A DNA stretch of 32,000 bases from Erysipelothrix larvae (GCF_001545095.1 NZ_CP013213.1:1560001-1592000), one strand, 5' to 3'. Shown: positions 12,651 through 29,227, counted from the first letter of the stretch. The notes: generated by a model not told the origin, from the letters alone. A program made the numbers and translations.

Positions 12651-13808
12651 TTAGTCTTTGGTATATGCTACGACACCACGACAAATTGTTGTTTGAATGT
12701 TGATGTCTTCATCAGTGATTACGATATCCGCATCTTTACCCACTGCGATGCTTCCCTTGCGTCCAAACACACCCAGTTGTTTCGCAGAGTTTGTAGACGA
12801 CATTTTAATAAGGGATTGCATTGAACAACCTGTGAAGTTCTTTAGGTTTCTAACCACAAAGTCCATCTCAGCAACTGACCCAGCAAGTGATCCTGTGTCG
12901 ATACGACATTCTTTGCCAATCTTCGATACCATTTGTCCACCAAGATCATATTCTCCATCAGGAAGCCCTTTTGCTCTCATCGCATCGGTTATTCCAATGA
13001 TGCCATCTTCTCCTTTAATGGTGAATGTAGCTTTCACTGAATCGGGATGAATGTGAATTCCATCCACAATCATTTCTGCTTTCAATTGTGGGTTCACAAA
13101 TCCAGCAGTTACTGCTCCAGGATTACGGTGATGATGAGGGGTCATTGCATTATGGAAATGGGTAAGATTTGATAGCCCTTCTTTACATGCATCCATAATT
13201 TGTCCATAGTAGGAATCTGTATGTCCTGCAGATGCAACAACGCCTTTTGACGTAATATAATCAATAAATCCAGGTTCTGCTTCTTCGGGTGCAAAGGTAA
13301 TTAATTTAATGCGTCCATCCGATTTTTCCCAATAATGATTAAAGTTTTCACGCGTTGGTTTTTGAATGAATTTTGGATTTTGAGCTCCAACATGTTTTGC
13401 GGAGATGAACGGACCTTCTAGATGCATTCCTAGCATCTCAGCTTCACCTGGTTTATTGTGATGATCCATGTACTCAACAATTGAACTTAATGCAATGTCA
13501 ACGGCTTCTTGAGATTGCGTCATCGTTGTAGGTAGATACGATGTTGTCCCTTCTTTTGGTATAAAATTAACAATCGTATGCAATGCTTCAAGGGTTCCAT
13601 CCATATGATCTGAGCCATAAGCTCCATGAATGTGTTGATCGATAAATCCAGGAATTACAGCATTCCCTTTTGCATCAATGACCTGATCATCATTCAGATC
13701 ACAAAACTCCATGGATCCAAAGCCAACAATTTTGTCGCCGGCAATTCGGACATACCCATTTTCAATCACACGATTTTCTAAATAAACTGTTCCATTAATA
13801 ATTAACAT
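12651..13808 (-). CDS. nagA: N-acetylglucosamine/N-acetylgalactosamine-6-phosphate deacetylase
   Basis: Amidohydrolase fold with 'GFIDQHIHG', 'HLEGPFIS', 'AGHTD' and 'THFHNAM' motifs as in NagA/AgaA. Start set at ATG 13808 (MLIINGTVY...), preceded by GGAGGAAACG. The track ORF is 13 codons longer. Confidence 0.9.
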   Translation of the reverse strand: MLIINGTVYLENRVIENGYVRIAGDKIVGFGSMEFCDLNDDQVIDAKGNAVIPGFIDQHIHGAYGSDHMDGTLEALHTIVNFIPKEGTTSYLPTTMTQSQEAVDIALSSIVEYMDHHNKPGEAEMLGMHLEGPFISAKHVGAQNPKFIQKPTRENFNHYWEKSDGRIKLITFAPEEAEPGFIDYITSKGVVASAGHTDSYYGQIMDACKEGLSNLTHFHNAMTPHHHRNPGAVTAGFVNPQLKAEMIVDGIHIHPDSVKATFTIKGEDGIIGITDAMRAKGLPDGEYDLGGQMVSKIGKECRIDTGSLAGSVAEMDFVVRNLKNFTGCSMQSLIKMSSTNSAKQLGVFGRKGSIAVGKDADIVITDEDINIQTTICRGVVAYTKD

Positions 13809-13974
13809 AACGTTTCCTCCTATGTCTATTATATGCTTTTCTGACACATTTGTGTAAAATGAATTGAGATAATTATTTCATTTTTCAACAATCAAAACTT
13901 AATCCTTGAATTCAATTTGCATTTGATGGTAAATTATGCAAAAATACTAGAGGAATTAATGAAAGAAGGACTGT

Positions 13975-14685
13975 ATGATTAACGTTGTTTTTGATCTTGA
14001 TGACACACTGTACTCGCTCTTACCCGTATTTGAGAAAACACTGCACCTGTTTATGCCTGAGCATACTTTAGATGTTCATGATTTTTATATCGCATTTAGA
14101 GAAGAAGCAAATAAGCTCTTTACGGATAGTCAAACAGGTAAAATCTCCATGGAAACCTTACATCGCTTACGTGCTCAAAATGCATTTAAACGCTATGGGA
14201 TTGTTTTAGATGACCAACAAGCCGATACTTTCCATGCAATCTATGATTCATACAAAGAAAACATAGCCTTGAGTGATGAAGCAATTGACATCATCCACTT
14301 GATGGATCAATATGGATTCAAAACGGGAATTATTACAAACGGAACATCACAAAAACAAAGAAAAACAATGCGATGTTTAGATATCACGCGATACTTTACT
14401 GATGACAATCTTATTATTGTATCTGGAGAACTTGGCATTGACAAACCCGACCATCGCATTTTTGATGCATGGACAGACCGCATTCAAAATACATCCCCTT
14501 CCCTTTATGTTGGTGATTCATTTACACATGATATCATCGGTGCATATCAGGCTGGATGGACACCCATTTGGTATAATCCACTTAACAAACATCACCCTGA
14601 AGTTGATTTTGAATTCATTGAAATCAAGTCACTGAGCGAACTTAAAACACTACCAATCATTACAGATAACGCAAACAGTAAGTAG
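13975..14685 (+). CDS. HAD-superfamily (subfamily IA-like) hydrolase/phosphatase
   Basis: Motif I 'VVFDLDDTLY', motif II 'GIITNG', and a motif III/IV region 'K...YVGDSFTHDIIGA'. The substrate is unknown. Confidence 0.8.
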   Translation: MINVVFDLDDTLYSLLPVFEKTLHLFMPEHTLDVHDFYIAFREEANKLFTDSQTGKISMETLHRLRAQNAFKRYGIVLDDQQADTFHAIYDSYKENIALSDEAIDIIHLMDQYGFKTGIITNGTSQKQRKTMRCLDITRYFTDDNLIIVSGELGIDKPDHRIFDAWTDRIQNTSPSLYVGDSFTHDIIGAYQAGWTPIWYNPLNKHHPEVDFEFIEIKSLSELKTLPIITDNANSK

Positions 14686-14717
14686 CATCTTGCACAAATT
14701 ACTGTTTTTTTTAATCT

Positions 14718-14735
14718 GTTTGTCGAAAAGTACAA
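14718..14735. promoter_or_regulatory. Conserved 'aga box' GTTTGTCGAAAAGTACAA upstream of the AgaZ-family gene
   Basis: 16/18 identical to 18590-18607. Related to the reverse complement of 18561-18578 and to 21863-21878. Lies 68-85 nt upstream of the ATG at 14803. Confidence 0.5.
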
Positions 14736-14802
14736 CCAGGTAACCACCTTCCCTAAATACCTTCATGATTGCGTTTTCTATAATATACATGAGGTGATAT
14801 AA

Positions 14803-16098
14803 ATGAGTGAAAATATACTTTTGAAATTAACGAATAAACACCCTGTCGGTGTCTATTCTGTATGTACGGCAAGCGGTCCTGTCATTAAAGCTTCTTTAGA
14901 ATTCGCGAAAGAAAATGGGTCGATTCTTGTTGTTGAAGCAACTGCAAATCAAGTCAATCAATTTGGGGGTTATACAAACATGACACCTTCAGATTATCGT
15001 GAATTTGTATACGATATTGCACACGACGTTGGTTTTGATCCATCGAGGATTGTATTAGGGGGTGACCACCTTGGTCCTTTGACCTGGACCGATAAAGATG
15101 AGGCTGAAGCCATGGCCCTTGCATCGACACTTGTCTATGAATATGCAAAAGCGGGGTATACAAAAATCCATCTTGATACATCAATGAAAGTTGCATCTGA
15201 TTCAGCATCAGAACCCCTCTCAAATACAATCATTGCACAGCGTTCTTGTGAACTCGCAAAAGCTGCGCTTCGTGGCTATAATGCCCTTAAAGAATCCAAC
15301 CCAGACGCAGTATTCCCTGTATTTATAATTGGCAGTGAAGTACCGATTCCAGGTGGTGCACAAGAAGCGGAAGAATCGCTTGCAGTCACCACTGTTGAAG
15401 ATTTTATGACGACCTACTTAGTATTCAAAGATGTTTATCAGAAAGAAAATATGATGAAAGTCTTCAATCACGTGATCGCGATTGTTGTGCAGCCTGGCGT
15501 CGAATTTGGCGATTCTGATTTGTTTATTTATCAACGCGAAAATGCTAAGAAACTCACTACAGCACTTAAAGAAAACTTTGAAACATTAAATTTTGAAGGC
15601 CACTCCACAGACTACCAAACACCGTCTGCTTTACGTGAAATGGTTGAAGATGGCATTACGATCTTGAAAGTTGGACCGGCTTTAACCTTCGCTTATCGTG
15701 AAGTATTGTTTGCATTATCAGAGATTGAACGGATTCTATTTAGTACCCCTTCACACCTCCCAGATGTACTTGAAAAAGCAATGCTTGATAATCCTAAGAA
15801 TTGGGAAAAGCATTATCATGGAAATACCCATGAGCTTGCATTCAAACGTAAATACAGCTATTCAGATCGTGCACGGTACTATTTACCAGTTCCTGAAGTG
15901 GATACTGCAATTCAAACACTGATTCACAATCTTGAATCGATTGATATTCCTGAAACCTTGTTATCGCAATACCTGCCATATCAATACCGTCATGTAAAGG
16001 ATGGGCTTATTACAAAACATCCCCATGATTTAATCTCCGATTACATTAAGTTGTATTTAGCGGATTATGAATACGCAACACAGAGTGCAAAACTCTAA
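14803..16098 (+). CDS. agaZ: GatZ/KbaZ/AgaZ-family protein (class II tagatose-bisphosphate aldolase non-catalytic subunit / tagatose-6-phosphate 4-epimerase family)
   Basis: Recalled E. coli GatZ blocks are present along the whole length: EATANQVNQFGGYTNMTPSDYREFV, GGDHLGP, KIHLDTSM, GSEVPIPGG, IAIVVQPGVEF, HSTDYQT, ILKVGPALTFA, YSYSDRARYY and SQYLP. Confidence 0.9.
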   Translation: MSENILLKLTNKHPVGVYSVCTASGPVIKASLEFAKENGSILVVEATANQVNQFGGYTNMTPSDYREFVYDIAHDVGFDPSRIVLGGDHLGPLTWTDKDEAEAMALASTLVYEYAKAGYTKIHLDTSMKVASDSASEPLSNTIIAQRSCELAKAALRGYNALKESNPDAVFPVFIIGSEVPIPGGAQEAEESLAVTTVEDFMTTYLVFKDVYQKENMMKVFNHVIAIVVQPGVEFGDSDLFIYQRENAKKLTTALKENFETLNFEGHSTDYQTPSALREMVEDGITILKVGPALTFAYREVLFALSEIERILFSTPSHLPDVLEKAMLDNPKNWEKHYHGNTHELAFKRKYSYSDRARYYLPVPEVDTAIQTLIHNLESIDIPETLLSQYLPYQYRHVKDGLITKHPHDLISDYIKLYLADYEYATQSAKL

Positions 16099-16122
16099 GA
16101 ACAGGATTTCCTGTTCTTTTTT
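16098..16122 (+). terminator. Terminator of the AgaZ-family gene
   Basis: AGAACAGG-ATTT-CCTGTTCT followed by TTTTT, overlapping the stop codon. Confidence 0.75.
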
Positions 16123-16195
16123 ACGAAGAAAAGTGATCATACGAATCGTTTGATTTGATGATCACTTTAATGTTTATTTACCTAGACAGTTGCAC

Positions 16196-16220
16196 AAAAG
16201 AGTCAGACTCTGACTCCTTT
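16196..16220 (-). terminator. Terminator of the PTS IIB-IIC-IID operon
   Basis: GAGTCAG-ACT-CTGACTC stem extended by A/T pairs, with a U-rich tail on the minus strand. Lies 31 nt after the IID stop. Confidence 0.6.
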
Positions 16221-16250
16221 GTTTGCTGGCTAAGCTATAGGAATTTATAT

Positions 16251-17171
16251 TTAATCTGCTGGTGGTGTTGGTAATTCATACCATCTAACAACTGGAGTAT
16301 ATCCGCCAGGAATTGAATTTCCATCAGCGTCAACAACACCAGAGTCACCTGCCCAAATACCAAAGAAGGTACCTACTAGACCGATTACGATAAGTAGTGC
16401 AATACACTTAGTTGGTGTCCAGTTATGTTTCTTAACAAGGAAATAAATCATCATCGTTAAGATTAATGGAATCAATTTAGGAATGACACCATCCAATACT
16501 TCTTGAATGATGATATATTCTCCACCACCTAAATCAACCGCAATTCGTAAGGTTGTACCACCGTAGTTTGATACAAGTGCACCTACGATGAATACCCCAA
16601 GAATACTTGCTGCACGCGTGAATTCTTTTGCATTCTTTGTGAAGACATCAATTGCTTGTGTTCCTAACTCATAGGATTTATGCATGAGTACATAACGCAC
16701 TACGAATTGGACAACATTAAAGATGATTAAGAATAAGAACGGTGCAAACCAATTACCACTAATCGCCATATTTGCAGTAAATCCTGCTGCGATTGGTACT
16801 AATGTTAACCAGAACAATGCATCCCCAATACCACCAAGTGGTCCCATTGCGGCAACACGTACCGCACGGATTGTTGGGATATCAGCTTTTTGTTGTTCAA
16901 GTGATAATACGATCCCCATAATAAAAGTTACTAAGAATGGGTGTGTGTTAAAGAATTCAAGGTTGTGTCCCATTGACGCAGCCAAGTCATCTTTGTCTGT
17001 ATGAATTTTTTCAAGCCCTGGCAAGATGCTGTATAACCATCCAGCTGCTTGCATACGTTCATAGTTAAATGAAGCTTGCAAGAAGCATGAACGCCACACC
17101 ATCTTATTGAGTGTTCGTTTATCCAGCTGTTGTGCAGGCGTTAGATTTTTATATAGATTAGATTCCATCAT
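16251..17171 (-). CDS. PTS mannose/fructose/sorbose-family transporter subunit IID (AgaD-like)
   Basis: Signature 'LEFFNTHPF' and the IID membrane topology. The start is either of the tandem ATGs at 17171/17168, downstream of GGAGGTG; the track start at 17183 is a GTG. Overlaps the end of IIC. Confidence 0.9.
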   Translation of the reverse strand: MMESNLYKNLTPAQQLDKRTLNKMVWRSCFLQASFNYERMQAAGWLYSILPGLEKIHTDKDDLAASMGHNLEFFNTHPFLVTFIMGIVLSLEQQKADIPTIRAVRVAAMGPLGGIGDALFWLTLVPIAAGFTANMAISGNWFAPFLFLIIFNVVQFVVRYVLMHKSYELGTQAIDVFTKNAKEFTRAASILGVFIVGALVSNYGGTTLRIAVDLGGGEYIIIQEVLDGVIPKLIPLILTMMIYFLVKKHNWTPTKCIALLIVIGLVGTFFGIWAGDSGVVDADGNSIPGGYTPVVRWYELPTPPAD

Positions 17172-17958
17172 CGTCACCTCCACCTGATGTTAGATCACGC
17201 ATACGTGTATTGGTTTGGAAATCGTAAATAGCGATTGCTAAACCGATCATTGCAAGAATAAGTAATGCTGGTCCTTGAAGGCTTTTGACTGCTCCAAGAA
17301 TTGTAGCAAATGCAAATCCCATGAAGTAAAATCCCCAGAGTTCTCCAGAAAGCATAATCTTCATTAAAATTGCAAACCCTACATAACGCATCATAACACC
17401 GGCTACTGCAAGTCCTGCCATTACCCAGCTATTATTTGCGGCAAAGTTAATAATTGCATCACTCGATGCAACACCTGCTGCCATCGCTACCATAACAACA
17501 ACACCAAAGAGTGTTCCTAAGATTCCCATACTAATGTAGTTAATCTTAGTAATTCCTTTAACATCAGCTTTTGCAGCATATTGATCTGCTTTAGACATTA
17601 ATGGTGACATAATTGTAAAGGTTGTTGTTACAGCGTATTGTCCTAATAACGCAAATGGAACAGCCATCCCCACAGCTGCAGCAGGTACAGTATTTTGTGC
17701 AATCGCAAAGACGGTTGCCATAATACCACCGATAACAGCATTTGGTGGTTGTGCTCCACCGATTGGCATACTACCAATTGTAATCAATTGATACGTACCA
17801 CCTACGATAAGTCCTGTATTCATATCCCCTAAGATTGCTCCAACAACTGGACCAACTACGATTGGTTGGTAAAGTGATTGGAGAAAGCTGAATTGGTCAA
17901 TCGCAACAATAAATGTAACGATAAACACCAGGATGTATTGCATTACATTAAAACTCAT
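17158..17958 (-). CDS. PTS mannose-family subunit IIC (AgaC-like)
   Basis: 266-aa polytopic protein with Gly/Ala-rich helices typical of EIIC-Man. AAGGAGGA RBS. Confidence 0.9.
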   Translation of the reverse strand: MSFNVMQYILVFIVTFIVAIDQFSFLQSLYQPIVVGPVVGAILGDMNTGLIVGGTYQLITIGSMPIGGAQPPNAVIGGIMATVFAIAQNTVPAAAVGMAVPFALLGQYAVTTTFTIMSPLMSKADQYAAKADVKGITKINYISMGILGTLFGVVVMVAMAAGVASSDAIINFAANNSWVMAGLAVAGVMMRYVGFAILMKIMLSGELWGFYFMGFAFATILGAVKSLQGPALLILAMIGLAIAIYDFQTNTRMRDLTSGGGDDDGI

Positions 17959-17981
17959 GTTTCTTTCCTCCTTATTGCTGA

Positions 17982-18458
17982 TTATTCAAATAATCCGGAT
18001 GTACTTTGTGCTCCTTCAGTTGGAACTTTTCGAATTTCAATCTCAACGCCAAGATCACGTAATTTCTTGAATGCCTCAACATCATTATCATCAACTGCGA
18101 CAACTTGAGATACTTGACGTTTCCCATCTGCCATATGCATGTTTCCAACATTCAATTTCTTGATTGGAACCCCTCCTTCAACAAGTGTCAGTACATCTTG
18201 TGGATTTTCGACAACCAAAAATATTTTTTGCTTGTCGGATGCTTTATGAATCGTATCGATTGTTTTCTGAAGCGACCAATAACGCGTCCCTGCATAACTT
18301 GGTGCGGCCATATCCATAAGTCCTTGGCGCATCGTGTTTGTAGACACCTCATCATTTGCAACTAATATGAGGTTTGCTCCTATTGCAGAACACCATTGCG
18401 TTGCAACTTGTCCATGAATCAATCGGTTATCGATTCGTGTTAAAACTATGTTTGGCAT
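17982..18458 (-). CDS. PTS mannose-family subunit IIB (AgaB-like)
   Basis: 'MPNIVLTRIDNRLIHGQVATQW' contains the phospho-His loop of EIIB-Man. Start set at ATG 18458, preceded by AAAGGAGAG at 6-nt spacing. Confidence 0.9.
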   Translation of the reverse strand: MPNIVLTRIDNRLIHGQVATQWCSAIGANLILVANDEVSTNTMRQGLMDMAAPSYAGTRYWSLQKTIDTIHKASDKQKIFLVVENPQDVLTLVEGGVPIKKLNVGNMHMADGKRQVSQVVAVDDNDVEAFKKLRDLGVEIEIRKVPTEGAQSTSGLFE

Positions 18459-18560
18459 AAACATCTCTCCTTTCACTTAGCCCAATAAGAGAATGAATGC
18501 TCTTACAAATAAATCTTATCAACTATTAGCGCATTTATATTTGCACTTATACACCTTCCG

Positions 18561-18607
18561 TTTGTACTTTTCAGCACAGAGGCATAAACGTTTGTCGAAA
18601 ATAACAA
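18561..18607. promoter_or_regulatory. Two copies of the 'aga box' in the IIB/araC divergent intergenic region: TTTGTACTTTTCAGCACA (18561-18578, inverted orientation) and GTTTGTCGAAAATAACAA (18590-18607)
   Basis: Direct comparison with 14718-14735. Confidence 0.5.
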
Positions 18608-18650
18608 AAACTTTGGCTTTTATGCTAAAATTTGGTTGGAGGTATTCACA

Positions 18651-19841
18651 ATGTACTTAAAAACGACAAGTCCCCAATTCTTGCAATATGGCTTAGTTTC
18701 CGATGCACCATCTGATTTCAGTGTTAAGCGCAACGCCTACGAAGGAAAACAGAGCGATACATTACGGTCAAATTCGCATCCAGTATCATTTCAAGTGATT
18801 GAAGGCATTGCTGTATTAATAATTGAAACACCCGATGCTTCCTTGCATGAATTTGTAATCCATCGAAGGGCAATCCTTGACGCAAACATCCCTTACACAA
18901 TCATCGCACTCACACAAAGTGTGTTGGTTGAAGAGTCGGTTCAAACGGATGCTCCATACCAAGAAATCGTCAAAAAAGCGGGGCGTTTGATTGAACATAA
19001 ACCCATTCAACCCCAATTTTATATTTCCGATATATTTTCATACTATTACAGTGTTAAAGGGCAAAAATATCATTTTGATGGGGAGTCTCATTACTATTGG
19101 GAGATTACCTATGTTGATACAGGAGAGCTCATCATTGAACTTGATGGTATTGAGTACAAACTTAACAACCAAGATCTTATGATTTACCTCCCAGGACAAT
19201 TTCATAAGCAACGCATTGCAGAAAGTAAAACCTGTTCCTATTTCACGATAATGTTTGATATGAATGGCCCGATTGGACTTTTTGATCAGCTTAAAAATCA
19301 AGTCATTCAATGCACTCAGCAGATGTACGCACTCATCAATCAATTCATTCGCCAATCTAATTTACTTGAGACGGATGAATTGCCTTTTACACGCGATTTA
19401 ATGATGTCCTACCTTCAAGAACTAATCATCCTCATGATGCAAAGTAAATCTGATCATGAGTTATTGACCATCACGAATATCAACCCTGCTCAAAATAAAT
19501 TTGAAAATGAAATGGTGGATGAAATCACCAACTACATTCTAAAAGAAATTTACAGTCCTATTACGGTCGAAGATATTTGTGATAATTTTGGAGTCAGCCG
19601 TTCAACCCTTCAATCATTATTTAAAAAACATTTGGGCGTACCACCGAAACAATACATCAATGATATGAAAATGCGAAAAGCACAACAAATCATCCTACAA
19701 GAAAATGTCCCGATTACGGAAGTGTCGTTGCGCCTTGGATTTAGTTCAATCCATTATTTCTCGCGAAAATTTAAAAAAGAATTTGGGTTGTCACCCAGTG
19801 AATTTGCACAATCTGTGTATCAAACAAGTCACGATGCTTAA
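18651..19841 (+). CDS. AraC/XylS-family transcriptional regulator with an N-terminal sensor region that includes a cupin-like module
   Basis: C-terminal double HTH ('ITVEDICDNFGVSRSTLQSLFKKHLGVPPKQYINDMKMRKAQQIL...LGFSSIHYFSRKFKKEFGLSPSEF'). Start at ATG 18651 after GGAGGT; the track start at 18636 is a TTG. Confidence 0.9.
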   Translation: MYLKTTSPQFLQYGLVSDAPSDFSVKRNAYEGKQSDTLRSNSHPVSFQVIEGIAVLIIETPDASLHEFVIHRRAILDANIPYTIIALTQSVLVEESVQTDAPYQEIVKKAGRLIEHKPIQPQFYISDIFSYYYSVKGQKYHFDGESHYYWEITYVDTGELIIELDGIEYKLNNQDLMIYLPGQFHKQRIAESKTCSYFTIMFDMNGPIGLFDQLKNQVIQCTQQMYALINQFIRQSNLLETDELPFTRDLMMSYLQELIILMMQSKSDHELLTITNINPAQNKFENEMVDEITNYILKEIYSPITVEDICDNFGVSRSTLQSLFKKHLGVPPKQYINDMKMRKAQQIILQENVPITEVSLRLGFSSIHYFSRKFKKEFGLSPSEFAQSVYQTSHDA

Positions 19842-19857
19842 TGCGTGACTTGTTTTT
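19824..19857 (+). terminator. Terminator of the AraC-family gene
   Basis: ACAAGTCACG-(10 nt)-CGTGACTTGT followed by TTTT. The 5' arm lies within the last codons. Confidence 0.7.
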
Positions 19858-19867
19858 ATAAAAAAGC

Positions 19868-19883
19868 CAACACGTATGTGTTG
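19868..19883 (-). terminator. Candidate terminator after the yajC-like gene
   Basis: CAACAC-GTAT-GTGTTG, with a U-run on the minus strand (A-run 19861-19865). Confidence 0.45.
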
Positions 19884-19892
19884 ACTCGAGTT

Positions 19893-20180
19893 TTATACAA
19901 TAATATTTGCGATACTGTAAAACGCTACTTCAATTTCAAGATTATTGGCAAGTTTTACTTTCGCAATTGATCCATCTTTATTGGTTCCTTGATAGATGCC
20001 AATTACACCCCCAGCACATAAAATCTTCATGCCTGGTTTCAACTCTTTTTTCAAGGATACTGAACGTTCGTTTGATTTTTTAAGTAAACTTTTGGTTCGA
20101 AACCAATAAAAACATAAAAAGATGATGATAAAAGCGATAACTGTTAAACTTGTATATAGTACGACATGAAAAGGTGTCAT
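19893..20180 (-). CDS. yajC: YajC-like small membrane protein (preprotein translocase subunit YajC family)
   Basis: 95 aa. One N-terminal TM helix, then 'LKPGMKILCAGGVIGIYQG...VKLANNLEIEV', resembling the YajC beta-domain. GGAGGA RBS. Confidence 0.7.
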   Translation of the reverse strand: MTPFHVVLYTSLTVIAFIIIFLCFYWFRTKSLLKKSNERSVSLKKELKPGMKILCAGGVIGIYQGTNKDGSIAKVKLANNLEIEVAFYSIANIIV

Positions 20181-20189
20181 ATGATCCTC

Positions 20190-20627
20190 CTAGATTCCAT
20201 CCTCATCTTCTTCAACATCACGCTTCATGAGGTCTTCTTTATCAAAGCGCGTCACTTGTTGCAACCCTGTTTCAACGAGCTTTTTAGCGAGTTCACCTAC
20301 GTCATCAAACCCACCACGCATCAATGTCCCTTCAAGAAGCATGGCGATGTTTGTTCCAGTAAGAACTTCAACATTCGGCTCATTCATTGCAATCATCACT
20401 GCTTGTTGGAATGGTGTTCCCCCTTTTAAATCCGTGAATACAAGCACCCCTTTGCCTTGATTCACAGTCTTTACTGCCTCAAATAAAGCAGTGTGCAATG
20501 CTTCGTGGCTTGATCCATCCAAGAAATTCACATTCAGATAGTGTTCTTGTTTTCCTGCGATCATTTCTACCGTTGAACTTACACCATCAGCAAATCGATT
20601 ATGTCCTGTTACAATGATTCCAATCAT
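20190..20627 (-). CDS. PTS mannose-family subunit IIA (AgaF-like)
   Basis: 'MIGIIVTGHNRFADG' carries the EIIA-Man phospho-His near residue 9. ATGA overlap with the agaS stop. Confidence 0.9.
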   Translation of the reverse strand: MIGIIVTGHNRFADGVSSTVEMIAGKQEHYLNVNFLDGSSHEALHTALFEAVKTVNQGKGVLVFTDLKGGTPFQQAVMIAMNEPNVEVLTGTNIAMLLEGTLMRGGFDDVGELAKKLVETGLQQVTRFDKEDLMKRDVEEDEDGI

Positions 20628-21802
20628 ACTTTTCCCCTTTCTGTATCAAATGGATACAATGTTACCCCTTGTACAACGCGATTAACCATTCCGGATGGCC
20701 ATGGATTATCCGGTGATTTCCCTAAAGAAACAGAACGGAGTAATCCAATCATTTGCGCAACAATAATGTAGCAAAGACCGATTAAATCTTTAGTAGTGGC
20801 TTCTACATGAATGGCAAAGTATTCATCAACAAGCACTTCAATATCACGGTCTTGTTTACAATCAATCGCAATCAATTGATTGCCATCTCTTTGACTGCTT
20901 ATTTCTTTGATGATATCAATTTGGTATTGACGAGTGTAGGGATCATCCGATAGGTAAATAACTGTTAGTGTCTCTTGATTCAAGATACTTTTTGGCCCAT
21001 GTCTAAATCCAAGTGGTGAATTAAACATCGATACCACTTCCCCTGCGGTGAGTTCTAAAATCTTCAGTGCAGACTCTTGGGCTATTCCATTAAGACTTCC
21101 ATCGCCTAAGTAGACAATTCGCTTGAAATCAAATGTATCGACAACACGTTGTGCAATTGGAAAGAAATCATTCAATATATGATGTGCTGCATCTTGTAAT
21201 GAAGCAATATCAAATTGATTGATAATTCCCTTATCTAAATTAAAACACAAATAAGCGGCTAATAACATATTTGTAAATGAACTTGTCATTGCAAAAGATA
21301 AATCATTAGTTTCATCCGGTAATATGATGGATGCATAGTGTTCCCCTTTACGCAGCGCTAATGCACCGTCTTTGTTACACGTAATAATCAAATGTTTGGT
21401 GTTTTTATTGATTGCATTAGCAACATCAATTGCACCAATTGATTCTGGAGAATTGCCTGAACGTCCAAACGAAACAACTAATGTTGGTTGATTTTCACGG
21501 ATATAGTATTCTGGAGTTGCCACTAAATCAGTAGAGGCTATCGATACAAAATGATCGTTTCCAGCCTTTTGAAATAGTGGTACGAGTGCATTTCCAACAA
21601 ATTCACTGGTCCCAGCACCTGAAAATATAATTTTGTAATGGTCTTGTTTTGTGATTGATTCAATAAACGCTTGAATTTCTTGATATTGATGCTTTATGAT
21701 TCCAACAGTCTTTGCCCATGTTTCTGGCTGTTGTGAAATTTCTTGAGCTGTATTTATGCCCATAACGTGTGTCCAATCGTCTTTTGATTTATTTAGTATC
21801 AT
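20624..21802 (-). CDS. agaS: SIS-domain sugar isomerase/deaminase, AgaS family (galactosamine-6-phosphate deaminase/isomerase)
   Basis: Recalled E. coli AgaS blocks are present: GAGTSEFVG, FGRSGNSPES, FAMTSSFTNM, RIVYLGDGSL, ESALKILELTAG, GFRHGPKS, PYTRQY and NRVVQGV. Start set at ATG 21802 (MILNKSKDDW...) after AGAGGTG. The track ORF has 26 extra N-terminal codons. Confidence 0.9.
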   Translation of the reverse strand: MILNKSKDDWTHVMGINTAQEISQQPETWAKTVGIIKHQYQEIQAFIESITKQDHYKIIFSGAGTSEFVGNALVPLFQKAGNDHFVSIASTDLVATPEYYIRENQPTLVVSFGRSGNSPESIGAIDVANAINKNTKHLIITCNKDGALALRKGEHYASIILPDETNDLSFAMTSSFTNMLLAAYLCFNLDKGIINQFDIASLQDAAHHILNDFFPIAQRVVDTFDFKRIVYLGDGSLNGIAQESALKILELTAGEVVSMFNSPLGFRHGPKSILNQETLTVIYLSDDPYTRQYQIDIIKEISSQRDGNQLIAIDCKQDRDIEVLVDEYFAIHVEATTKDLIGLCYIIVAQMIGLLRSVSLGKSPDNPWPSGMVNRVVQGVTLYPFDTERGKV

Positions 21803-21862
21803 TGTATAAACACCTCTTTCAAGTTTATTATATGAATCTTGTGAGTGTGTACAAGGGTATAA

Positions 21863-21878
21863 CTTAAAAGTATAAACC
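21863..21878. promoter_or_regulatory. Weaker aga-box-like element CTTAAAAGTATAAACC upstream of agaS
   Basis: Shares the AAAAGTA(C/T)AA(A)CC core with 14724-14737. Lies 61-76 nt upstream of the agaS ATG. Confidence 0.3.
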
Positions 21879-21950
21879 ATTCAACGAATATCACAAATTA
21901 ACACCTTATTTTTGTTGTATACTAATAATGACAAATGATGGAGGTGCATC

Positions 21951-24043: not shown

Positions 24044-24898
24044 TTATTTTTTTGACTCATCGTGTGAACCCTTTAGTTTCATGACTTGATGTAGGTGAAT
24101 GGTTAGGTACATTTTTTCATCGGCATTGAGACTATAATTGTATTCCTTCTCACAATACTTGGCAATTGTATCAACACATCGATTGAACTTGAGAATACTT
24201 GCGCGAATTTGTTTGATAAAACTATCGCTTGTCTCAAGGGTTTGAGGTGTATTACTATGAAAAATATTATGGGCAAGATATTTTAAATGGGTAATTAAAC
24301 GTCGATGACTCAGACTGTTTGTTTCAATGGTGACATTTAACTCTGAAGCGATGATTGTCATCACATCGTTTAAAAATTTGACGGATTTATTCGCATAATA
24401 TTTCTCGCTGGATGACGATGCGTTTACGATATGAATTGTGAAATAGGTTGCCTCTTCTTCTGGAAGTCGAATGCCAATTTTTCGTTCGATATAATCAAGC
24501 GCCCACAGTCCAATTTCATATGCTTCAGGGAAAAATAACTGCATATCATTTGATATACTTGGCATTGTGATTCCTTGATGTACCCGCTCAATCGCATAGG
24601 CAATGTGATCGGTAAGACTGATATTAATTTTGTCATCGATTGTTTCATTAAGTTGTGTTGCGGCGTATTCTGCAATATCACGGGTTATTTCAAAATACAG
24701 TACAGGATACTGTTCAAGCATTTTTTCAAATGCAGCCATGTTGTCATCAAAAATCACAAATGACTTCTCAATCTTTTGAGCATCAATTGTCTCTCCTGCC
24801 TTCATATGAAAGCCAACACCAGGTCCAGTTACAATGGTTTCTTTCCCATCCATCACAGTTTGGACACAATTGTTGTTGAAGATTTTACGAATTATCAT
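24044..24898 (-). CDS. BglG/LicT/GlcT-family PRD-containing transcription antiterminator
   Basis: N-terminal CAT RNA-binding domain 'MIIRKIFNNNCVQTVMDGKETIVTGPGVGF', followed by two PRD modules with conserved His contexts (LTDHIAYAIER, HIVNA, LITHLKYLAHN, LTIHL). Start at ATG 24898 after GGGAGGGG. Confidence 0.9.
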   Translation of the reverse strand: MIIRKIFNNNCVQTVMDGKETIVTGPGVGFHMKAGETIDAQKIEKSFVIFDDNMAAFEKMLEQYPVLYFEITRDIAEYAATQLNETIDDKINISLTDHIAYAIERVHQGITMPSISNDMQLFFPEAYEIGLWALDYIERKIGIRLPEEEATYFTIHIVNASSSSEKYYANKSVKFLNDVMTIIASELNVTIETNSLSHRRLITHLKYLAHNIFHSNTPQTLETSDSFIKQIRASILKFNRCVDTIAKYCEKEYNYSLNADEKMYLTIHLHQVMKLKGSHDESKK

Positions 24899-25048
24899 CG
24901 AACCCCTCCCCCAATAATACACGTCTATTTTAATCGATTTATATGCTTTACTTATTCAATTTATTATATCGTAGAAATCGTTGATTTCATAGGATGCAAA
25001 TTTTTATTATAATCAAATTCACTGCATTTGTATGGGTATAAAATAAAC

Positions 25049-25087
25049 AACATGCAAGCAATCTATCCGATAGACCCCTTGCATGTT
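25049..25087 (-). terminator. Terminator between the PTS EIICB gene and the antiterminator gene
   Basis: AACATGCAAG-(19 nt)-CTTGCATGTT, a perfect 10-bp stem 16 nt after the EIICB stop, with a U-rich tail on the minus strand. Confidence 0.65.
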
Positions 25088-25102
25088 ATTCCATCATTTA
25101 TC

Positions 25103-26548
25103 TTATTTTAAGAGCTTGATAAACTCATCTGAAACAAATTGAACGTAGGGTCCGATGATGACTTGGACACTTGTTTTTCCTGGCTTCACGATGCCAGAAA
25201 TTCCTGCTTCTTTGATCCGTTTGTCATTCACAATTGATTGATCTTTTACTTCCAATCTTAATCGTGTTGCGCAATAATCTGTTGAAGTGATGTTTGATGG
25301 ACCTCCCAATCCATCAAGGATAATTTGTGCAACTTTTTTATAATCGTCTTTTCCATTTGACTGGGTATCTAAGATCGCATCCAGATCATCTTCATTCACT
25401 TCACGACCTGGAGTCATAATATTGAACTTCACAATCACAAATCTAAACACGACATAGTAGAGTGCAAAGAACACAATTCCTTGTATCATAAGCATAAAGG
25501 GTTGATTTGCAATTGGCACCTTTAGACTCAAGATAAAGTCAATAAATCCGGCACTGAATCCAAACCCTGCTGTCCAATGAAACGTTGCAGATACAAACAA
25601 TGATAGACCCGTTAAGAGTGCATGTAAGAGGTATAATAAAGGTGCAGCAAACATAAATGAAAACTCAAGAGGTTCTGTTACACCGGTAAAAAATGAAGCA
25701 AAGCCGGCTGCAAGCATTAACGAACCAATTTGTTTCTTGTTTTCTTCACGTGCTGATTGGTAAATCGCAATCGCAGCACCTAATAGACCAAACATCATAA
25801 TTGGGAAGAATCCCGCTTGATACATCCCTGTTACACCTTTAATGCCTTCATTTCCCCAAAAGTTACCAATATCATTAATACCAATGAGATCTTGCCAAAA
25901 CACTGCATTGAGTGCATGGTGTAATCCGGTTGGAATTAAAAGTCGATTGAATAGTCCAAAGAGTCCTGCCCCTACAGCACCCAGTCCACTCATCCATGTT
26001 CCTAATGCGACTAATGCATCATAAATTGCTGGCCACGCATACAATAGAATAAATGACACAACAATCATCACAACGGATGTCACAATTGGTGCGGATCGTT
26101 TACCACTGAAAAAAGCAAGTGCATCGGGTAATTTAGTTTGTGAGAATCGATTATAAACAAGTGCTCCAATAACTCCGGATAGAATTCCGATAAATGCATT
26201 GTTTATTTTCGCAAATCCATCGCTTATTGCATCTACAGGGGTTCCTGTAATCATGGACACGACTTCCGTGCTGAGCAAGGTTGTCACCATCAAAAAGGCA
26301 ACCAGTCCACTGAGGGCTGCTGCACCATCATTATCTTTTGATAATCCATAGGCAACCCCCACTGCAAAAATAATGGGAACACTGTCAATGATTGCACTTC
26401 CTGATTTTATTAGAAATGCAGCCAATTGACTGTCTCCACCCCACCCCACTGGGTCAATCCAATAGCCAATTCCCATTAAGACTGCTGCCGCAGGGAGTAC
26501 TGATACGGGAAGCATCAAGGCTTTCCCGAGTTTTTGTAAAAATTTCAT
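25103..26548 (-). CDS. PTS glucose/GlcNAc-family transporter, fused EIIC-EIIB (no EIIA domain)
   Basis: About 10 TM helices with the EIIC-Glc motifs ('GITEPLEF'-like 'GVTEPLEFSFMFAAPLLY'). C-terminal EIIB has the phospho-Cys context 'ITSTDYCATRLRLEV'. AAGGAGGAG RBS. Confidence 0.9.
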   Translation of the reverse strand: MKFLQKLGKALMLPVSVLPAAAVLMGIGYWIDPVGWGGDSQLAAFLIKSGSAIIDSVPIIFAVGVAYGLSKDNDGAAALSGLVAFLMVTTLLSTEVVSMITGTPVDAISDGFAKINNAFIGILSGVIGALVYNRFSQTKLPDALAFFSGKRSAPIVTSVVMIVVSFILLYAWPAIYDALVALGTWMSGLGAVGAGLFGLFNRLLIPTGLHHALNAVFWQDLIGINDIGNFWGNEGIKGVTGMYQAGFFPIMMFGLLGAAIAIYQSAREENKKQIGSLMLAAGFASFFTGVTEPLEFSFMFAAPLLYLLHALLTGLSLFVSATFHWTAGFGFSAGFIDFILSLKVPIANQPFMLMIQGIVFFALYYVVFRFVIVKFNIMTPGREVNEDDLDAILDTQSNGKDDYKKVAQIILDGLGGPSNITSTDYCATRLRLEVKDQSIVNDKRIKEAGISGIVKPGKTSVQVIIGPYVQFVSDEFIKLLK

Positions 26549-26578
26549 AAGTCTCCTCCTTCTTCTTGGATAGGCATG

Positions 26579-26601
26579 AAAAAAAAGGCAAGTTCTACAA
26601 A
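26579..26601 (-). terminator. Orphaned 3' arm and U-tract of the RAT-controlled leader terminator (partner arm at 29156-29170)
   Basis: The minus strand reads TTTGTAGAACTTGCC followed by 8 U, ending 30 nt before the EIICB ATG. It is complementary at 13/15 positions to GGCAAGACCTACAAA, which lies next to the RAT on the other side of the IS. Confidence 0.65.
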
Positions 26602-26618
26602 CAAAACAGCATCACTGT

Positions 26619-26626
26619 ACTATTTG
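26619..26626. repeat. Target-site duplication ACTATTTG (left copy)
   Basis: Identical 8-mer at 29152-29159, directly abutting both IS ends. 8 bp is the usual ISL3-family duplication length. Confidence 0.7.
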
Positions 26627-26648
26627 GGATATTAAACTTTACTTGGGG
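26627..26648. repeat. IS left terminal inverted repeat GGATATTAAACTTTACTTGGGG
   Basis: Compared base by base with the reverse complement of 29130-29151. Confidence 0.6.
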
Positions 26649-26758
26649 TTTTCACTCGCAACACTATTTCTTGGGGTGAGGTAATCTTGCTCTAGCCTCT
26701 GTCTTTAAAGAAGTTTGGGGATTTCTGTTGTAAACTGATTATCTTAGACCAGCAGAAT

Positions 26759-26813
26759 AAAAAATCACTTTACTTTATGCACAATTAAGTGCTGTATTAA
26801 AGTGATTTTTTTT
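26759..26813. terminator. Strong bidirectional terminator-like hairpin inside the IS left arm
   Basis: AAAAAATCACTTTA ... TAAAGTGATTTTTT (up to 14 bp) with an inner GCAC-AATTAA-GTGC stem. A-run on the 5' side and T-run on the 3' side. Confidence 0.6.
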
Positions 26814-26911
26814 GTATTATTAGTTTAACGAGGTTAATAAAATGGTAGAAACCCCAAGTTTCCAGACCTAAGTTTCTACCAATCCAATACCTCCTATAAA
26901 GGAGTAAGAAT

Positions 26912-27382
26912 ATGATAACAGTTTTCTCAAACACATTCAATAATAAACAGTTTTCTCAAAAGGAATATTACAAATTTCTCAATTCAATTAATCCAAAAAC
27001 AATACCTTGTCCGTGCTGTTCAAAAACAGATACACTGATTCGTTATGGATACTATCCGAAAACCATAATTACTGGGCGATTAACCATTGTCGTAGAAATC
27101 GCACGTTTCTTTTGTAATCAATGTAAGAGAACTCATGCAATAATACCAAGTAACTTACTTCCCTATTTTCAACTGTCTGTACCCACAATTGAAATAATAT
27201 TAACCCATGAACTTGATAGCACGCTTTTAACTGATATTGATGAATCAACATATATTCGGATAAAAATACGTTTTAACGATTATGAATCGGTGAGACATTT
27301 AAGTTATTTGGAACGATTGAATTACTTCATATTATCCACAAAACGGAATATCTATCATTCCGCCATTACTTCACCAACATGA
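26912..27382 (+). CDS. Zinc-ribbon protein, DUF6431-like (IS accessory ORF)
   Basis: 'CPCCSKTDTLIRYGYYPKTI...IVVEIARFFCNQCKRTHAIIPSNLLPYFQLS' has a CxxC...CxxC layout and an 'H-x-(I/L)-(I/L)-P...L-x-P-Y' tail, as I recall for DUF6431. AAGGAG RBS. The family name is from memory. Confidence 0.6.
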   Translation: MITVFSNTFNNKQFSQKEYYKFLNSINPKTIPCPCCSKTDTLIRYGYYPKTIITGRLTIVVEIARFFCNQCKRTHAIIPSNLLPYFQLSVPTIEIILTHELDSTLLTDIDESTYIRIKIRFNDYESVRHLSYLERLNYFILSTKRNIYHSAITSPT

Positions 27383-27515
27383 GAAAAATAGTTTTAACTC
27401 CTCAGATTGAATATAATGAAGATGGTTATTTAAATAACAGACAATCATTTTTATATTTAGGAGCAAGATACATAATGAAACCTTATCAAAATAGTCAAAG
27501 AGAGGCAGGGTTTCT

Positions 27516-28991
27516 ATGAACGCTAATGCCACTCTTTTAAGTAACGAAAAAATTCTTGAATTATTTAACTTAGAACACCATCAAGTCCAGAAGATTGATA
27601 TCAAAGGTCAAAGTGACGCATTGAATGTGTACATTACGCTTCAGGTAGAGGAACAAACATGCCCAATTTGTGAAAGCAAAACATCCACAATCAAAGATTA
27701 TTCTGAAAAGAAGCTTCTCCACTCACTGGTAACACATATACCCTGTTACATTCGTTACCGTGCACGACGTTATAAATGCACAACGTGTAATAAATGCTTT
27801 TTTGAACACAATCCATTTGCGTATCGAAATATGAAGATTACTCAGCTGACCGTATATAATGTCCTGAATGATCTTAAATCGCCACATGAAACGTTTACCA
27901 CAGTTGCCAATAGATATCGGTTATCTCCCACTACAGTATCATCTATTTTCGATTCCCACGTTTCTGTCTCCAGACAAAAACTACCCGCTTATCTGCTTAT
28001 TGATGAATGTTATGCGTACCACAGTGATCGCAGTGATTATGTATGCGTTCTTATTGATGCAATGACAAAGAATATCGTAGATATATTACCGTCCCGTAAG
28101 AAACAAGACTTAGTCGCGTATTTTAGCCAAATCCCCCTTGAAGAACGCAAAGGAGTCTTAGGTATTGGAATCGACATGTGGTATAGCTATAGAGTCGTCG
28201 CAAAACAATTCCTTCCAAACGCGTTTATCAGTGTTGATCGTTTTCATGTTTATAGTGATTTAATGAAACGTATCGACTCTATTAGGGTAGACACTATGAA
28301 GAAACTAAAACCTCCTAAGAACTGGAAGCAAACAGAAGATAAAGTCAAAAGACAAGAATATTATAAGCGTGACCAGCAATACTATCTGCTTAAAAAGTTC
28401 AACTGGTTACTCTATAAAAACCCCAAAGCAACAACCACAGTTAAAGATAAGAAATACAATATATTTGATCCAAATGTACCGAAACAACGCAATAAGAAAT
28501 TGGGAAAGTTTCTAAACCTTTACGACATAATAGACCTAATTCTTCAAACGAGCAATGGCCTTGAAGATGCATATAACATGAAGTTCTTACTCGATCAATT
28601 CTTCAATGAATCAAAAGCTGAGAATGCACACGAGAATCTGAACACACTCATCAGAGTGATGGCTCAGAGTAGAGTTGCATCAATCGTTGATTTTAGCCGA
28701 ACTTTAGGAAAGTGGAAAAATGAAATTGTCGCAACTTTCAATAAAGTAGAAAAATGCACAAAGGTCACAAATAAGAAAACAGGAGAAACCCATTATGAAG
28801 TTTCCATAACACACATAAACAGTGCGTTGATTGAGAATCGAAATCGCATAATCAAGCAAATAAAAAACAATGCAAGTGGCTATCGTAATTGGGAGCGGTT
28901 TAGGAATCGTGTGTTGTATGTGCTTAATGAAGACGCAACATATCGAATTAACCCAATAATTAAAACAACCTATGACAAAGGACTCTCTTAA
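27516..28991 (+). CDS. ISL3-family transposase
   Basis: N-terminal zinc finger 'CPICES...YKCTTCNKCF', an HTH region, a 'LLIDECY' DDE block ('IGIDMWYSY', 'VDRFHV'), and the C-terminal 'NSALIENRNRIIKQIKNNASGYRNWERFRNRVLY' motif typical of DDE_Tnp_ISL3. Confidence 0.85.
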   Translation: MNANATLLSNEKILELFNLEHHQVQKIDIKGQSDALNVYITLQVEEQTCPICESKTSTIKDYSEKKLLHSLVTHIPCYIRYRARRYKCTTCNKCFFEHNPFAYRNMKITQLTVYNVLNDLKSPHETFTTVANRYRLSPTTVSSIFDSHVSVSRQKLPAYLLIDECYAYHSDRSDYVCVLIDAMTKNIVDILPSRKKQDLVAYFSQIPLEERKGVLGIGIDMWYSYRVVAKQFLPNAFISVDRFHVYSDLMKRIDSIRVDTMKKLKPPKNWKQTEDKVKRQEYYKRDQQYYLLKKFNWLLYKNPKATTTVKDKKYNIFDPNVPKQRNKKLGKFLNLYDIIDLILQTSNGLEDAYNMKFLLDQFFNESKAENAHENLNTLIRVMAQSRVASIVDFSRTLGKWKNEIVATFNKVEKCTKVTNKKTGETHYEVSITHINSALIENRNRIIKQIKNNASGYRNWERFRNRVLYVLNEDATYRINPIIKTTYDKGLS

Positions 28992-29129
28992 GAAATGACT
29001 CATTATTGATATACTATAACAAAAAGAGGGAAGCTATAGTCATGTGCGACTACGCTTCCCTTTGGTCTTTAACAAACTTGTTTGGGGTAACTTACTCCCC
29101 AAGTTATTTTATATCATTTTCTGAATTAT

Positions 29130-29151
29130 CCCCAAGTTATTTCAGACCGCC
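29130..29151. repeat. IS right terminal inverted repeat (reverse complement GGCGGTCTGAAATAACTTGGGG)
   Basis: See the left inverted repeat. Additional subterminal CCCCAA/TTGGGG copies at 29082-29087 and 29097-29102. Confidence 0.6.
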
Positions 29152-29159
29152 ACTATTTG
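29152..29159. repeat. Target-site duplication ACTATTTG (right copy)
   Basis: Identical to 26619-26626. Confidence 0.7.
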
Positions 29160-29188
29160 TAGGTCTTGCCTTTATAAGTCACAATCCC
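29156..29188 (-). promoter_or_regulatory. RAT (ribonucleic antiterminator) element plus the 5' arm of its terminator
   Basis: The minus strand reads GGGATTGTGACTTATAAAGGCAAGACCTACAAA. As I recall them, the B. subtilis sacPA/sacB RATs are GGATTGTGACTGGTAAAGCAGGCAAGACC and GGTTTGTTACTGATAAAGCAGGCAAGACC. The 3' part, GGCAAGACCTACAAA, pairs with 26587-26601. Confidence 0.7.
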
Positions 29189-29198
29189 ATCTACGTGA

Positions 29199-29227
29199 AG
29201 AATAACACATCATGAAAGGGCTGTCAA
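29199..29227 (-). promoter_or_regulatory. Sigma-A-type promoter preceding the RAT (-35 TTGACA, 17-nt spacer, extended -10 TGTTATTCT)
   Basis: -35 is the complement of 29222-29227 and -10 is the complement of 29199-29204. The RAT begins about 10 nt downstream of the -10. Confidence 0.6.

Follow-up and report, generated by a model that had tools for sequence, protein, structure and literature searches.

An ISL3-family insertion sequence within the predicted RAT/terminator leader of a NagE-type EIICB gene in Erysipelothrix larvae

Can the EIICB gene of a phosphotransferase system (PTS) in Erysipelothrix larvae still be read from the regulatory leader that belongs to it, when an insertion sequence (IS) of 2525 bp lies between the two? 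The gene, the leader and the IS are found in a 32,000-nucleotide stretch of the E. larvae genome (GCF_001545095.1, NZ_CP013213.1:1560001-1592000), hereafter the window, in whose coordinates all positions are given. An earlier note on this DNA had proposed that the IS sits between the two arms of a leader terminator that overlaps a ribonucleic antiterminator (RAT), and had offered two outcomes for the operon, silencing or RAT-independent expression from within the IS. The explanation reached here is that the RAT attenuator of a NagE-type EIICB gene has been disabled by an ISL3-family insertion with an 8-bp target duplication and that EIICB is most likely silent; we give this explanation a probability of about 0.8.

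The leader is read on the minus strand. Its native promoter at 29199-29227 (TTGACA-17 nt-TG-n-TATTCT; -35 at 29227-29222, -10 ending at 29199) scores 10/12, carries an extended -10 TG, and ranks first among the promoter-like sites that a consensus scan returned between 24000 and 29400. An intact RAT follows at 29162-29188 (GGGATTGTGACTTATAAAGGCAAGACC). It aligns with GGATTGTTACTGAAGAAGGCAAGACC of orthologous leaders, differs from the pattern GGnTTGTTACT...GGCAAnACC by one substitution, and is the sole match to that pattern in the window when three substitutions are allowed; the same pattern gave only 7 matches in roughly 1 Mb of other fetched loci. Neither the window nor four IS-free leaders gave a hit above gathering score in Rfam 15, a null that says little because we know of no RAT model in Rfam. 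The 5' arm of the leader terminator (29152-29173, minus) overlaps the 3' half of the RAT and ends in the left, promoter-side copy of the target duplication; it is paired in the fold of the IS-excised leader and is part of a terminator consensus of five sequences. Sequence reading, an arm search and folds place the remainder of the loop, the terminator 3' arm and the U8 tract at 26579-26618 (minus), on the far side of the IS: TTTGTAGAACTTGCC lies at 26601-26587 and T8 at 26586-26579, 30 nt upstream of the ATG at 26548. A ribosome-binding site read from the sequence, AGGAGGAG (26553-26562, minus), stands 5 nt ahead of that ATG. The promoter, the RAT and the distant complementary arm with its eight U residues had all been claimed by the earlier note, and each held on re-reading; for the arms, a repeat search independently paired 26584-26601 with 29156-29173 (18 nt, 89% complementary).

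With 26627-29159 deleted in silico, 114 nt of leader remain, and these fold as a single long terminator hairpin (-39.3 kcal/mol) with U8 behind it. In this excised leader the terminator 5' arm begins at AAAGGCAAG, within the RAT, and in the genome as found the overlap of RAT and terminator is interrupted by the IS. Stable pairing of the two arms had been set beforehand as a test of the idea, and the arms do fold stably; the claim that excision restores a canonical promoter-RAT-terminator-RBS-gene leader is carried by this fold together with the orthologues described below. The proposal that the IS entered the loop, of about 21 nt, is accurate for arms of 15 nt, which have 21 nt between them, but the minimum-free-energy fold of the excised leader places the duplicated octamer in the upper stem, adjoining the apical loop. 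In the IS-bearing RNA a different pairing is predicted for 26553-26590 (minus), where U8 and the next bases pair with the purine-rich region of the ribosome-binding site (CCUUUUUUUU...AAGAAGAAGGAGG); this would occlude the site when the terminator 3' arm is not engaged.

The IS itself occupies 26627-29151, with genes on the plus strand, antiparallel to the leader, and ends GGATATTAAACTTTACTTGGGG... and ...CCCCAAGTTATTTCAGACCGCC. Perfect 8-bp copies of ACTATTTG abut both tips, one on the promoter side (29152-29159) and one on the gene side (26619-26626), and enclose exactly 2525 bp. The transposase (491 aa, 27516-28991, plus) matches DDE_Tnp_ISL3 (PF01610, 1.3e-40), Zn_ribbon_ISL3 (PF14690, 1e-6) and HTH_Tnp_ISL3 (PF13542, 3.7e-6, which is 0.7 bits below its cutoff), and scores 212 bits against the NCBIfam model transpos_ISL3 (NF033550, cutoff 180). 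An accessory open reading frame (ORF) of 156 aa at 26912-27382 (plus) matches DUF6431 (PF20020, 1.3e-10). The flanking repeat and the Pfam and NCBIfam domains thus bear out the earlier description of a 2525-bp ISL3-type element with a perfect 8-bp direct repeat.

Orthologous leaders were taken from the closest EIICB homologues with flanks, those of an uncultured relative (L081), Erysipelothrix urinaevulpis (L082), Erysipelothrix rhusiopathiae (L084) and a metagenome-assembled genome (L086); the first of these has 69% identity, and among 5.8 billion proteins the best match after an E. larvae protein, which is 100% identical to the window EIICB, also stands at 69%. All four leaders are free of the IS and have the promoter-RAT-terminator-RBS layout of the excised window leader, namely TTGACA-17-TAnnnT, GGATTGTTACT...GGCAAGACC, GACCTACAAATA, a loop of 11-31 nt, TATTTGTAGGTC, a T-run and a ribosome-binding site. 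Had the relatives carried unrelated sequence between RAT and U-tract, the excision would have lost its meaning; in these four taxa only the 11-31 nt between the arms are present. An alignment of the four with the E. larvae leader after IS excision shows no variation in AGGCAAGACCTA-CAAATA, a string that spans the insertion point, and the left copy of the duplicated octamer (CAAATAGT, minus strand) therefore begins within conserved host leader sequence. For the five leaders RNAalifold returns one shared terminator, whose hairpin starts inside the RAT; of its 23 pairs, 4 show compensatory changes on both sides. Because IS-free orthologues share the layout and the invariant string, the in-silico excision is taken to retrace real history and not a coincidence, and chance complementarity of the two arms was rejected on the same leaders. 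Homology as well as folding thus supports the reading that EIICB was parted from its promoter and antitermination signal when an ISL3-type IS entered the RAT/terminator leader. The E. larvae terminator is shifted relative to the others, its 3' arm having AA where they have GG, a change compensated by 8-9 extra pairs that extend deeper into the RAT.

A misplacement of the multi-copy IS at this locus by the assembler, with the true leader intact, is very improbable, even with at least five near-identical IS copies in the genome as a setting for assembler errors and with several metagenomic contigs of a related IS that show mismatched flanks and no duplications, since a mis-join would not yield a perfect 8-bp host duplication at both IS tips, the flanks together make up a hairpin that four related taxa have uninterrupted, and the source record is a single 2,495,108-bp contig.

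As the locus stands, transcripts from the native promoter would keep the RAT, run antisense into the IS and end at T_R, a terminator-like hairpin carried by the IS at 29015-29061 (minus; GGGAAGC...GCUUCCC followed by UCUUUUUGUU; centroid -20.8 kcal/mol, z -3.6). T_R lies about 90-135 nt inside the IS from the native-promoter side and is the first block that these transcripts meet; the consensus scan missed it because its loop exceeds 8 nt. Standing outside the RAT overlap, it would be beyond relief by the antiterminator. A second hairpin, T_L (26759-26811), has an A-tract/stem/T-tract build and is terminator-like on both strands (-19.3 and -19.9 kcal/mol; z -5.4 minus, -3.9 plus). It is reached 2.2 kb after T_R by native transcripts and, with the 2.5 kb of DNA, would form a further barrier. 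The earlier note had named a strong bidirectional hairpin at 26759-26813 as the element that blocks read-through; the hairpin is real and bidirectional, but T_R comes before it. The regulator would be left with a RAT to bind and no terminator to override.

No promoter-like site of at least 9/12 faces EIICB downstream of T_L in the consensus scan. The minus-strand candidates between 26830 and 26549 reach 8/12 at best, and two of the three have spacers of 15 or 19 nt. Given the IS terminators and the lack of a good outward promoter toward EIICB, silencing is favoured, and EIICB is, as far as sequence can tell, most likely silent, or else weakly and constitutively expressed. Between the two outcomes first put forward, a silenced gene or one driven from within the IS, the former is the better supported.

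Several points weigh against this conclusion. Silencing is read from sequence only, a single E. larvae genome is available, and the IS-free leaders compared come from other taxa. The IS contains a weak promoter-like site at 26940-26912 (minus, 9/12 with TG) that could give low RAT-independent expression, and the AT-rich stem of T_L may leak read-through. On the gene side, RNA that leaves the IS folds into a hairpin separated from U8 by GCC. This is no canonical terminator, so such transcripts would reach EIICB. On these grounds one could suppose a rewiring, in which EIICB has become constitutive and independent of the RAT, driven by an IS promoter or by terminator read-through, as a selected gain of expression; the insertion destroys the sole terminator that stood between the IS and the gene, and ISL3 members with outward promoters exist, for example IS1411. 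We consider this unlikely. The site at 26940 is upstream of T_L, an element whose position is kept in 11/11 members of the clade of related IS described below, the two candidates past T_L reach 8/12, with spacers of 15 and 19 nt, and promoter-like sites in the region are no commoner than in shuffled sequence (25 vs 21.6 +/- 4.5 expected).

The gene cut off in this way is intact. EIICB (481 aa, 25103-26548, minus) is of NagE/NagP type, with PTS_EIIC and PTS_EIIB domains and 625.7 bits against the N-acetylglucosamine IIBC equivalog model TIGR01998 (cutoff 553). Just downstream, as had been noted earlier, lies an intact gene for an antiterminator of the BglG/LicT family (24044-24898, minus; likely start ATG 24898 after GGGAGGGG), with a CAT_RBD match of 7e-17 and two PRD stretches. 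It scores 239 bits against the LicT model, under the equivalog cutoff of 300, and is under the GlcT cutoff too. The protein aligns over its full length with four orthologues, H106, H164, H212 and H276 being invariant, and its gene is beside EIICB in all four relatives. To call the two genes an operon is probably wrong, because a terminator-like hairpin stands directly after EIICB (25036-25089, minus; -26.9 kcal/mol, then the U-rich tail GUUUAUUUUAU), a promoter-like site precedes the antiterminator gene (24963-24990, minus; ATGAAA-16 nt-TATAAT, 10/12), and the two genes converge in E. urinaevulpis, E. rhusiopathiae and the metagenome-assembled genome, being co-directional in E. larvae and L081. 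The two are probably separate transcription units, and with its own promoter-like site beyond the EIICB terminator the antiterminator probably continues to be produced, unaffected by the IS.

Apart from the insertion, this is an ordinary RAT-terminator leader of the BglG/LicT/GlcT class, on a NagE-type EIICB and with a short-stemmed RAT. It shares with the BglG/SacY/LicT/GlcT systems (ptsG-GlcT, licS-LicT and sacB-SacY in Bacillus subtilis) a promoter, a RAT whose 3' half overlaps the terminator 5' arm, a PTS EII gene, and a CAT_RBD-PRD-PRD protein encoded alongside; the predicted role of that protein is to bind the RAT and prevent termination in response to sugar. Its RAT of 26-27 nt has a shorter apical stem than the 29-nt Bacillus RATs, its target gene is a NagE/NagP-type EIICB (TIGR01998), its antiterminator falls below both the LicT and the GlcT equivalog cutoffs, and the element is split by an IS. 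In the bgl operon of Escherichia coli, IS1 or IS5 upstream of the promoter activates a silenced operon and leaves the RAT/terminator intact. Common to bgl and the window is an IS that alters the state of a PTS under a BglG-family antiterminator, whereas in the window the IS lies inside the attenuator and most likely silences. A search of a genome collection for EIICB gave 80 further loci of at most 64% identity; none of these 80 had a RAT directly upstream of EIICB, and they were not used as orthologous leaders. Six loci of clostridial type (L032, L042, L054, L059, L061 and L062) have a canonical RAT about 1.7 kb upstream of a NagE-type EIICB, and in the one inspected (L061, 4200-7434) the RAT heads an antiterminator-EIIA-HPr-EIICB operon. 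Since the RAT recurs at this distance in clostridial-type relatives, predicted RAT control of NagE-type EIICB is widespread, the gene order there being a different one.

The locus offers a clean natural case in which a riboregulatory leader has been disabled by a mobile element, known at nucleotide resolution and with an ancestral state that was rebuilt and checked in sister species. It also places a NagE-type transporter of Erysipelothrix, by its sequence, under RAT/antiterminator control, and expression of the E. larvae EIICB should not be presumed in annotation. The event is of a familiar mutational type and concerns one gene in one sequenced strain; the behaviour of the IS clade is the more interesting lead.

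Identical copies of the 491-aa transposase and of the 156-aa DUF6431 protein are each found under at least 4 chromosomal accessions of E. larvae, in adjacent pairs, and a 99% identical transposase copy lies on a 16-kb E. larvae plasmid; by these protein matches the IS is multi-copy in E. larvae and recently active. A PLSDB megablast of the IS with its flanks gave no match, in a collection without the E. larvae plasmid. The ends of the IS were checked on clade relatives with 37-55% transposase identity rather than on the other E. larvae copies, and the ends of the relatives were set by flank divergence where copies with different flanks could be compared. In the window the left tip is GGATATTAAACTTTACTTGGGG and the right tip, as reverse complement, is GGCGGTCTGAAATAACTTGGGG; both begin with GG and carry ACTTGGGG starting at position 15, and the 13 nt between the two differ from end to end. 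The relatives are built likewise, with a G[G/A] tip, about 13 variable nt and a motif common to both ends, the right end finishing in ...CC. Perfect 8-bp duplications flank 16 further distinct insertions of the clade, three of them in the finished genome of Tannockella kyphosi, where the three IS copies have different flanks. The earlier note had reasoned that different termini in other copies would make the octamer part of the element; among the clade relatives the same end build and the 8-bp duplications argue for a true duplication, the DNA of the other E. larvae copies lying outside the comparison. If the boundaries are right, those copies should end GGATATTAAAC... / ...CAGACCGCC, each with a different 8-bp duplication.

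The right end of the window IS holds two exact copies of CCCCAAGTTATTT (29097-29109 and 29130-29142, 33 bp apart), and the left end has degenerate inverted copies of it at 26636-26648 and 26707-26719 (minus). In the related IS L087 the right end has CCCCAAGTTATTTT and CCCCATGTTATTTT. These repeats suggest multiple subterminal transposase-binding sites, which would be unusual for ISL3.

The relatives measure 2214-2507 bp, next to 2525 bp and two ORFs in the window. A DUF6431 ORF lies upstream of the transposase gene in every relative whose gene calls were viewed (L087-L090 and L171-L179), with none called in L181. The typical ISL3 element is about 1.2-1.5 kb long and has a single ORF. Shared with the family (ISL3, IS1167, IS1411, ISPst9) are DDE_Tnp_ISL3 with an N-terminal zinc ribbon and helix-turn-helix, ends that start with GG, and 8-bp duplications; the clade differs in its 2.2-2.5 kb, its extra upstream DUF6431 ORF, its weakly matching ends with a repeated subterminal motif, its conserved internal antisense terminators and its apparent preference for terminator hairpins. 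Elements that combine DUF6431 with an ISL3 transposase are a distinct two-gene sub-group of 2.2-2.5 kb, still within the ISL3 family. The idea that DUF6431 is a copy of the transposase N-terminus was dropped, no similarity having been found; the protein gave a weak RING-finger-like match in the PDB (E 0.003) and no match in PHROGs. An IS21-like DDE-plus-AAA cassette, of which one Clostridium genome has 15 copies, is also reported to be accompanied by DUF6431 (bioRxiv 10.64898/2026.08.16.744336). It could serve as a target-selection or regulatory factor.

Eleven clade members were scanned for terminators (the window IS, L087, L092, L101, L105, L113, L122, L132, L165, L171 and L181). A minus-strand equivalent of T_L, at IS coordinates of about 105-280, is present in 11/11, with differing sequences, and one of T_R, about 80-160 nt inside the right end, in nine of the ten other members (weak in L087, absent from L165). 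Such elements are usually the strongest terminator-like elements of each IS. These antisense terminators could replace a broken host terminator and shield the transposase from host transcription.

For target choice, the empty site was rebuilt for every insertion with a perfect duplication, which gave 17 distinct insertions including that in the window; only insertions with a perfect 8-bp duplication were counted, the largest metagenomic group (L126-L168) and L087 being mostly or wholly without one. Thirteen of the 17 are in or against terminator-like hairpins. In L101, L105, L106 and L113 the octamer sits in the loop or apex of the hairpin; L095, L097, L116, L165, L172 and L181 have it in the U-tract or at the base of the 3' stem; in L171 and L173 it touches or enters the 5' arm, and in L092 it is immediately next to the hairpin. 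L181, the 17th site, is an insertion into the 3' stem and U-tract of a terminator of -26 kcal/mol, and the window insertion, in the upper stem, is consistent with the clade pattern. Folds of 60-nt segments at the sites are more stable than same-locus controls (Mann-Whitney p 2e-4), as they are for the 12 relatives alone against intergenic segments (p 5.5e-4). A terminator detector based on energy (hairpins spanning up to 50 nt with -7 kcal/mol or lower, a T-rich tail and a margin of 3 nt) found 12/16 sites overlapping or abutting a terminator-like element; among intergenic control bases the share was 15% (binomial p 1.7e-7). Relative to the IS genes the terminator is on the opposite strand in nine cases, on both strands in three and co-directional only in none. 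The insertion sites have no sequence consensus, and the hairpins are fully restorable once the IS is removed.

These patterns point to a clade that would tend to land in or beside the hairpins of intrinsic terminators in one and the same orientation, an attenuator terminator being a collateral target. In its full form the proposal is that the elements with DUF6431 and an ISL3 transposase are a previously undescribed terminator-seeking clade, which inserts at the loop or at the stem base and U-tract, antiparallel, and brings replacement antisense terminators, 5' attenuators (RAT, riboswitch, T-box) being collateral and the EIICB knockout one such accident. We put it forward tentatively, as close to an even call. 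The literature search returned no report of ISL3 elements that target terminators, nor of an IS inside a RAT leader.

Part of the evidence also fits a near-random insertion into AT-rich DNA, after which harmless insertions near terminators, and that of the window, persisted. Every site is natural and already selected, the duplicated octamers are AT-rich, 4/17 sites are without a terminator-like element, and the antisense orientation may itself be selected, as it keeps host transcription off the transposase. Weighing in the same direction against a terminator-seeking clade, terminators are the least harmful sites, so that survival bias could yield part of both the enrichment and the orientation bias; the preference rests on 17 sites, with thresholds picked after inspection of the data; and looser detectors give 9/13 against 22-27% (p about 1e-3). 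Chance followed by survival is possible but rather doubtful, as the placement is precise, with the octamer in the loop or apex or in the U-tract or stem base in 10 named sites, the enrichment with p 1.7e-7 was measured against intergenic controls of the same loci, and the window insertion hit a 5' leader, where an insertion is not harmless. If the clade does seek terminators and carries replacements for them, this would explain the low-cost spread of a multi-copy element, and genes controlled by attenuation would be unusually exposed to it.

Other mobile elements choose comparable targets. Class C group II introns insert after terminators. In staphylococci, the hairpins entered by IS1272/TnSha1 of the IS1182 family share no primary-sequence consensus and include many confirmed terminators; this element makes no target duplication, and part of the stem is deleted (PMC4923244). 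The clade has a transposase of another family and an orientation bias, and makes clean 8-bp duplications without loss of target; it resembles IS1272 in target choice and is not a member of the IS1272 group. IS that target repetitive extragenic palindromic (REP) sequences also choose stem-loops (PMC1525189; ISPpu9, PMC12288879). These IS and the class C introns use different enzymes and chemistry, and they go to REP repeats or to sites beyond terminators, whereas the clade goes to the loop or U-tract of ordinary gene terminators.

The metagenomic group left out of the counts deserves a description of its own. L126-L168 have ends GAATATAT...GGATTACC, and most of these contigs lack matching flanks; they were treated as likely chimeric joins across the repeat, and chimeric assembly of this kind is the likely source of the missing flank duplications in gut-metagenome contigs. 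Together with L180 they are the most abundant related IS in gut metagenomes, with ends GAATATATAAAA...GCGGATTACC. One insertion, found in both L141 and L180, is flanked by AGAAAATC at one end and by AAGAAAAT at the other, with a shift of one base between the two. In L087 there is no target duplication.

On the physiological side, the literature search gave no accessible data on the phenotype of E. larvae on N-acetylglucosamine. The window itself encodes a second amino-sugar system at 12651-21880, comprising a NagA-like amidohydrolase, GatZ/KbaZ, mannose-family PTS IIB, IIC and IID proteins, an AraC regulator and a SIS-domain protein; if this system transports related amino sugars, the loss of a NagE-type EIICB may cost little.

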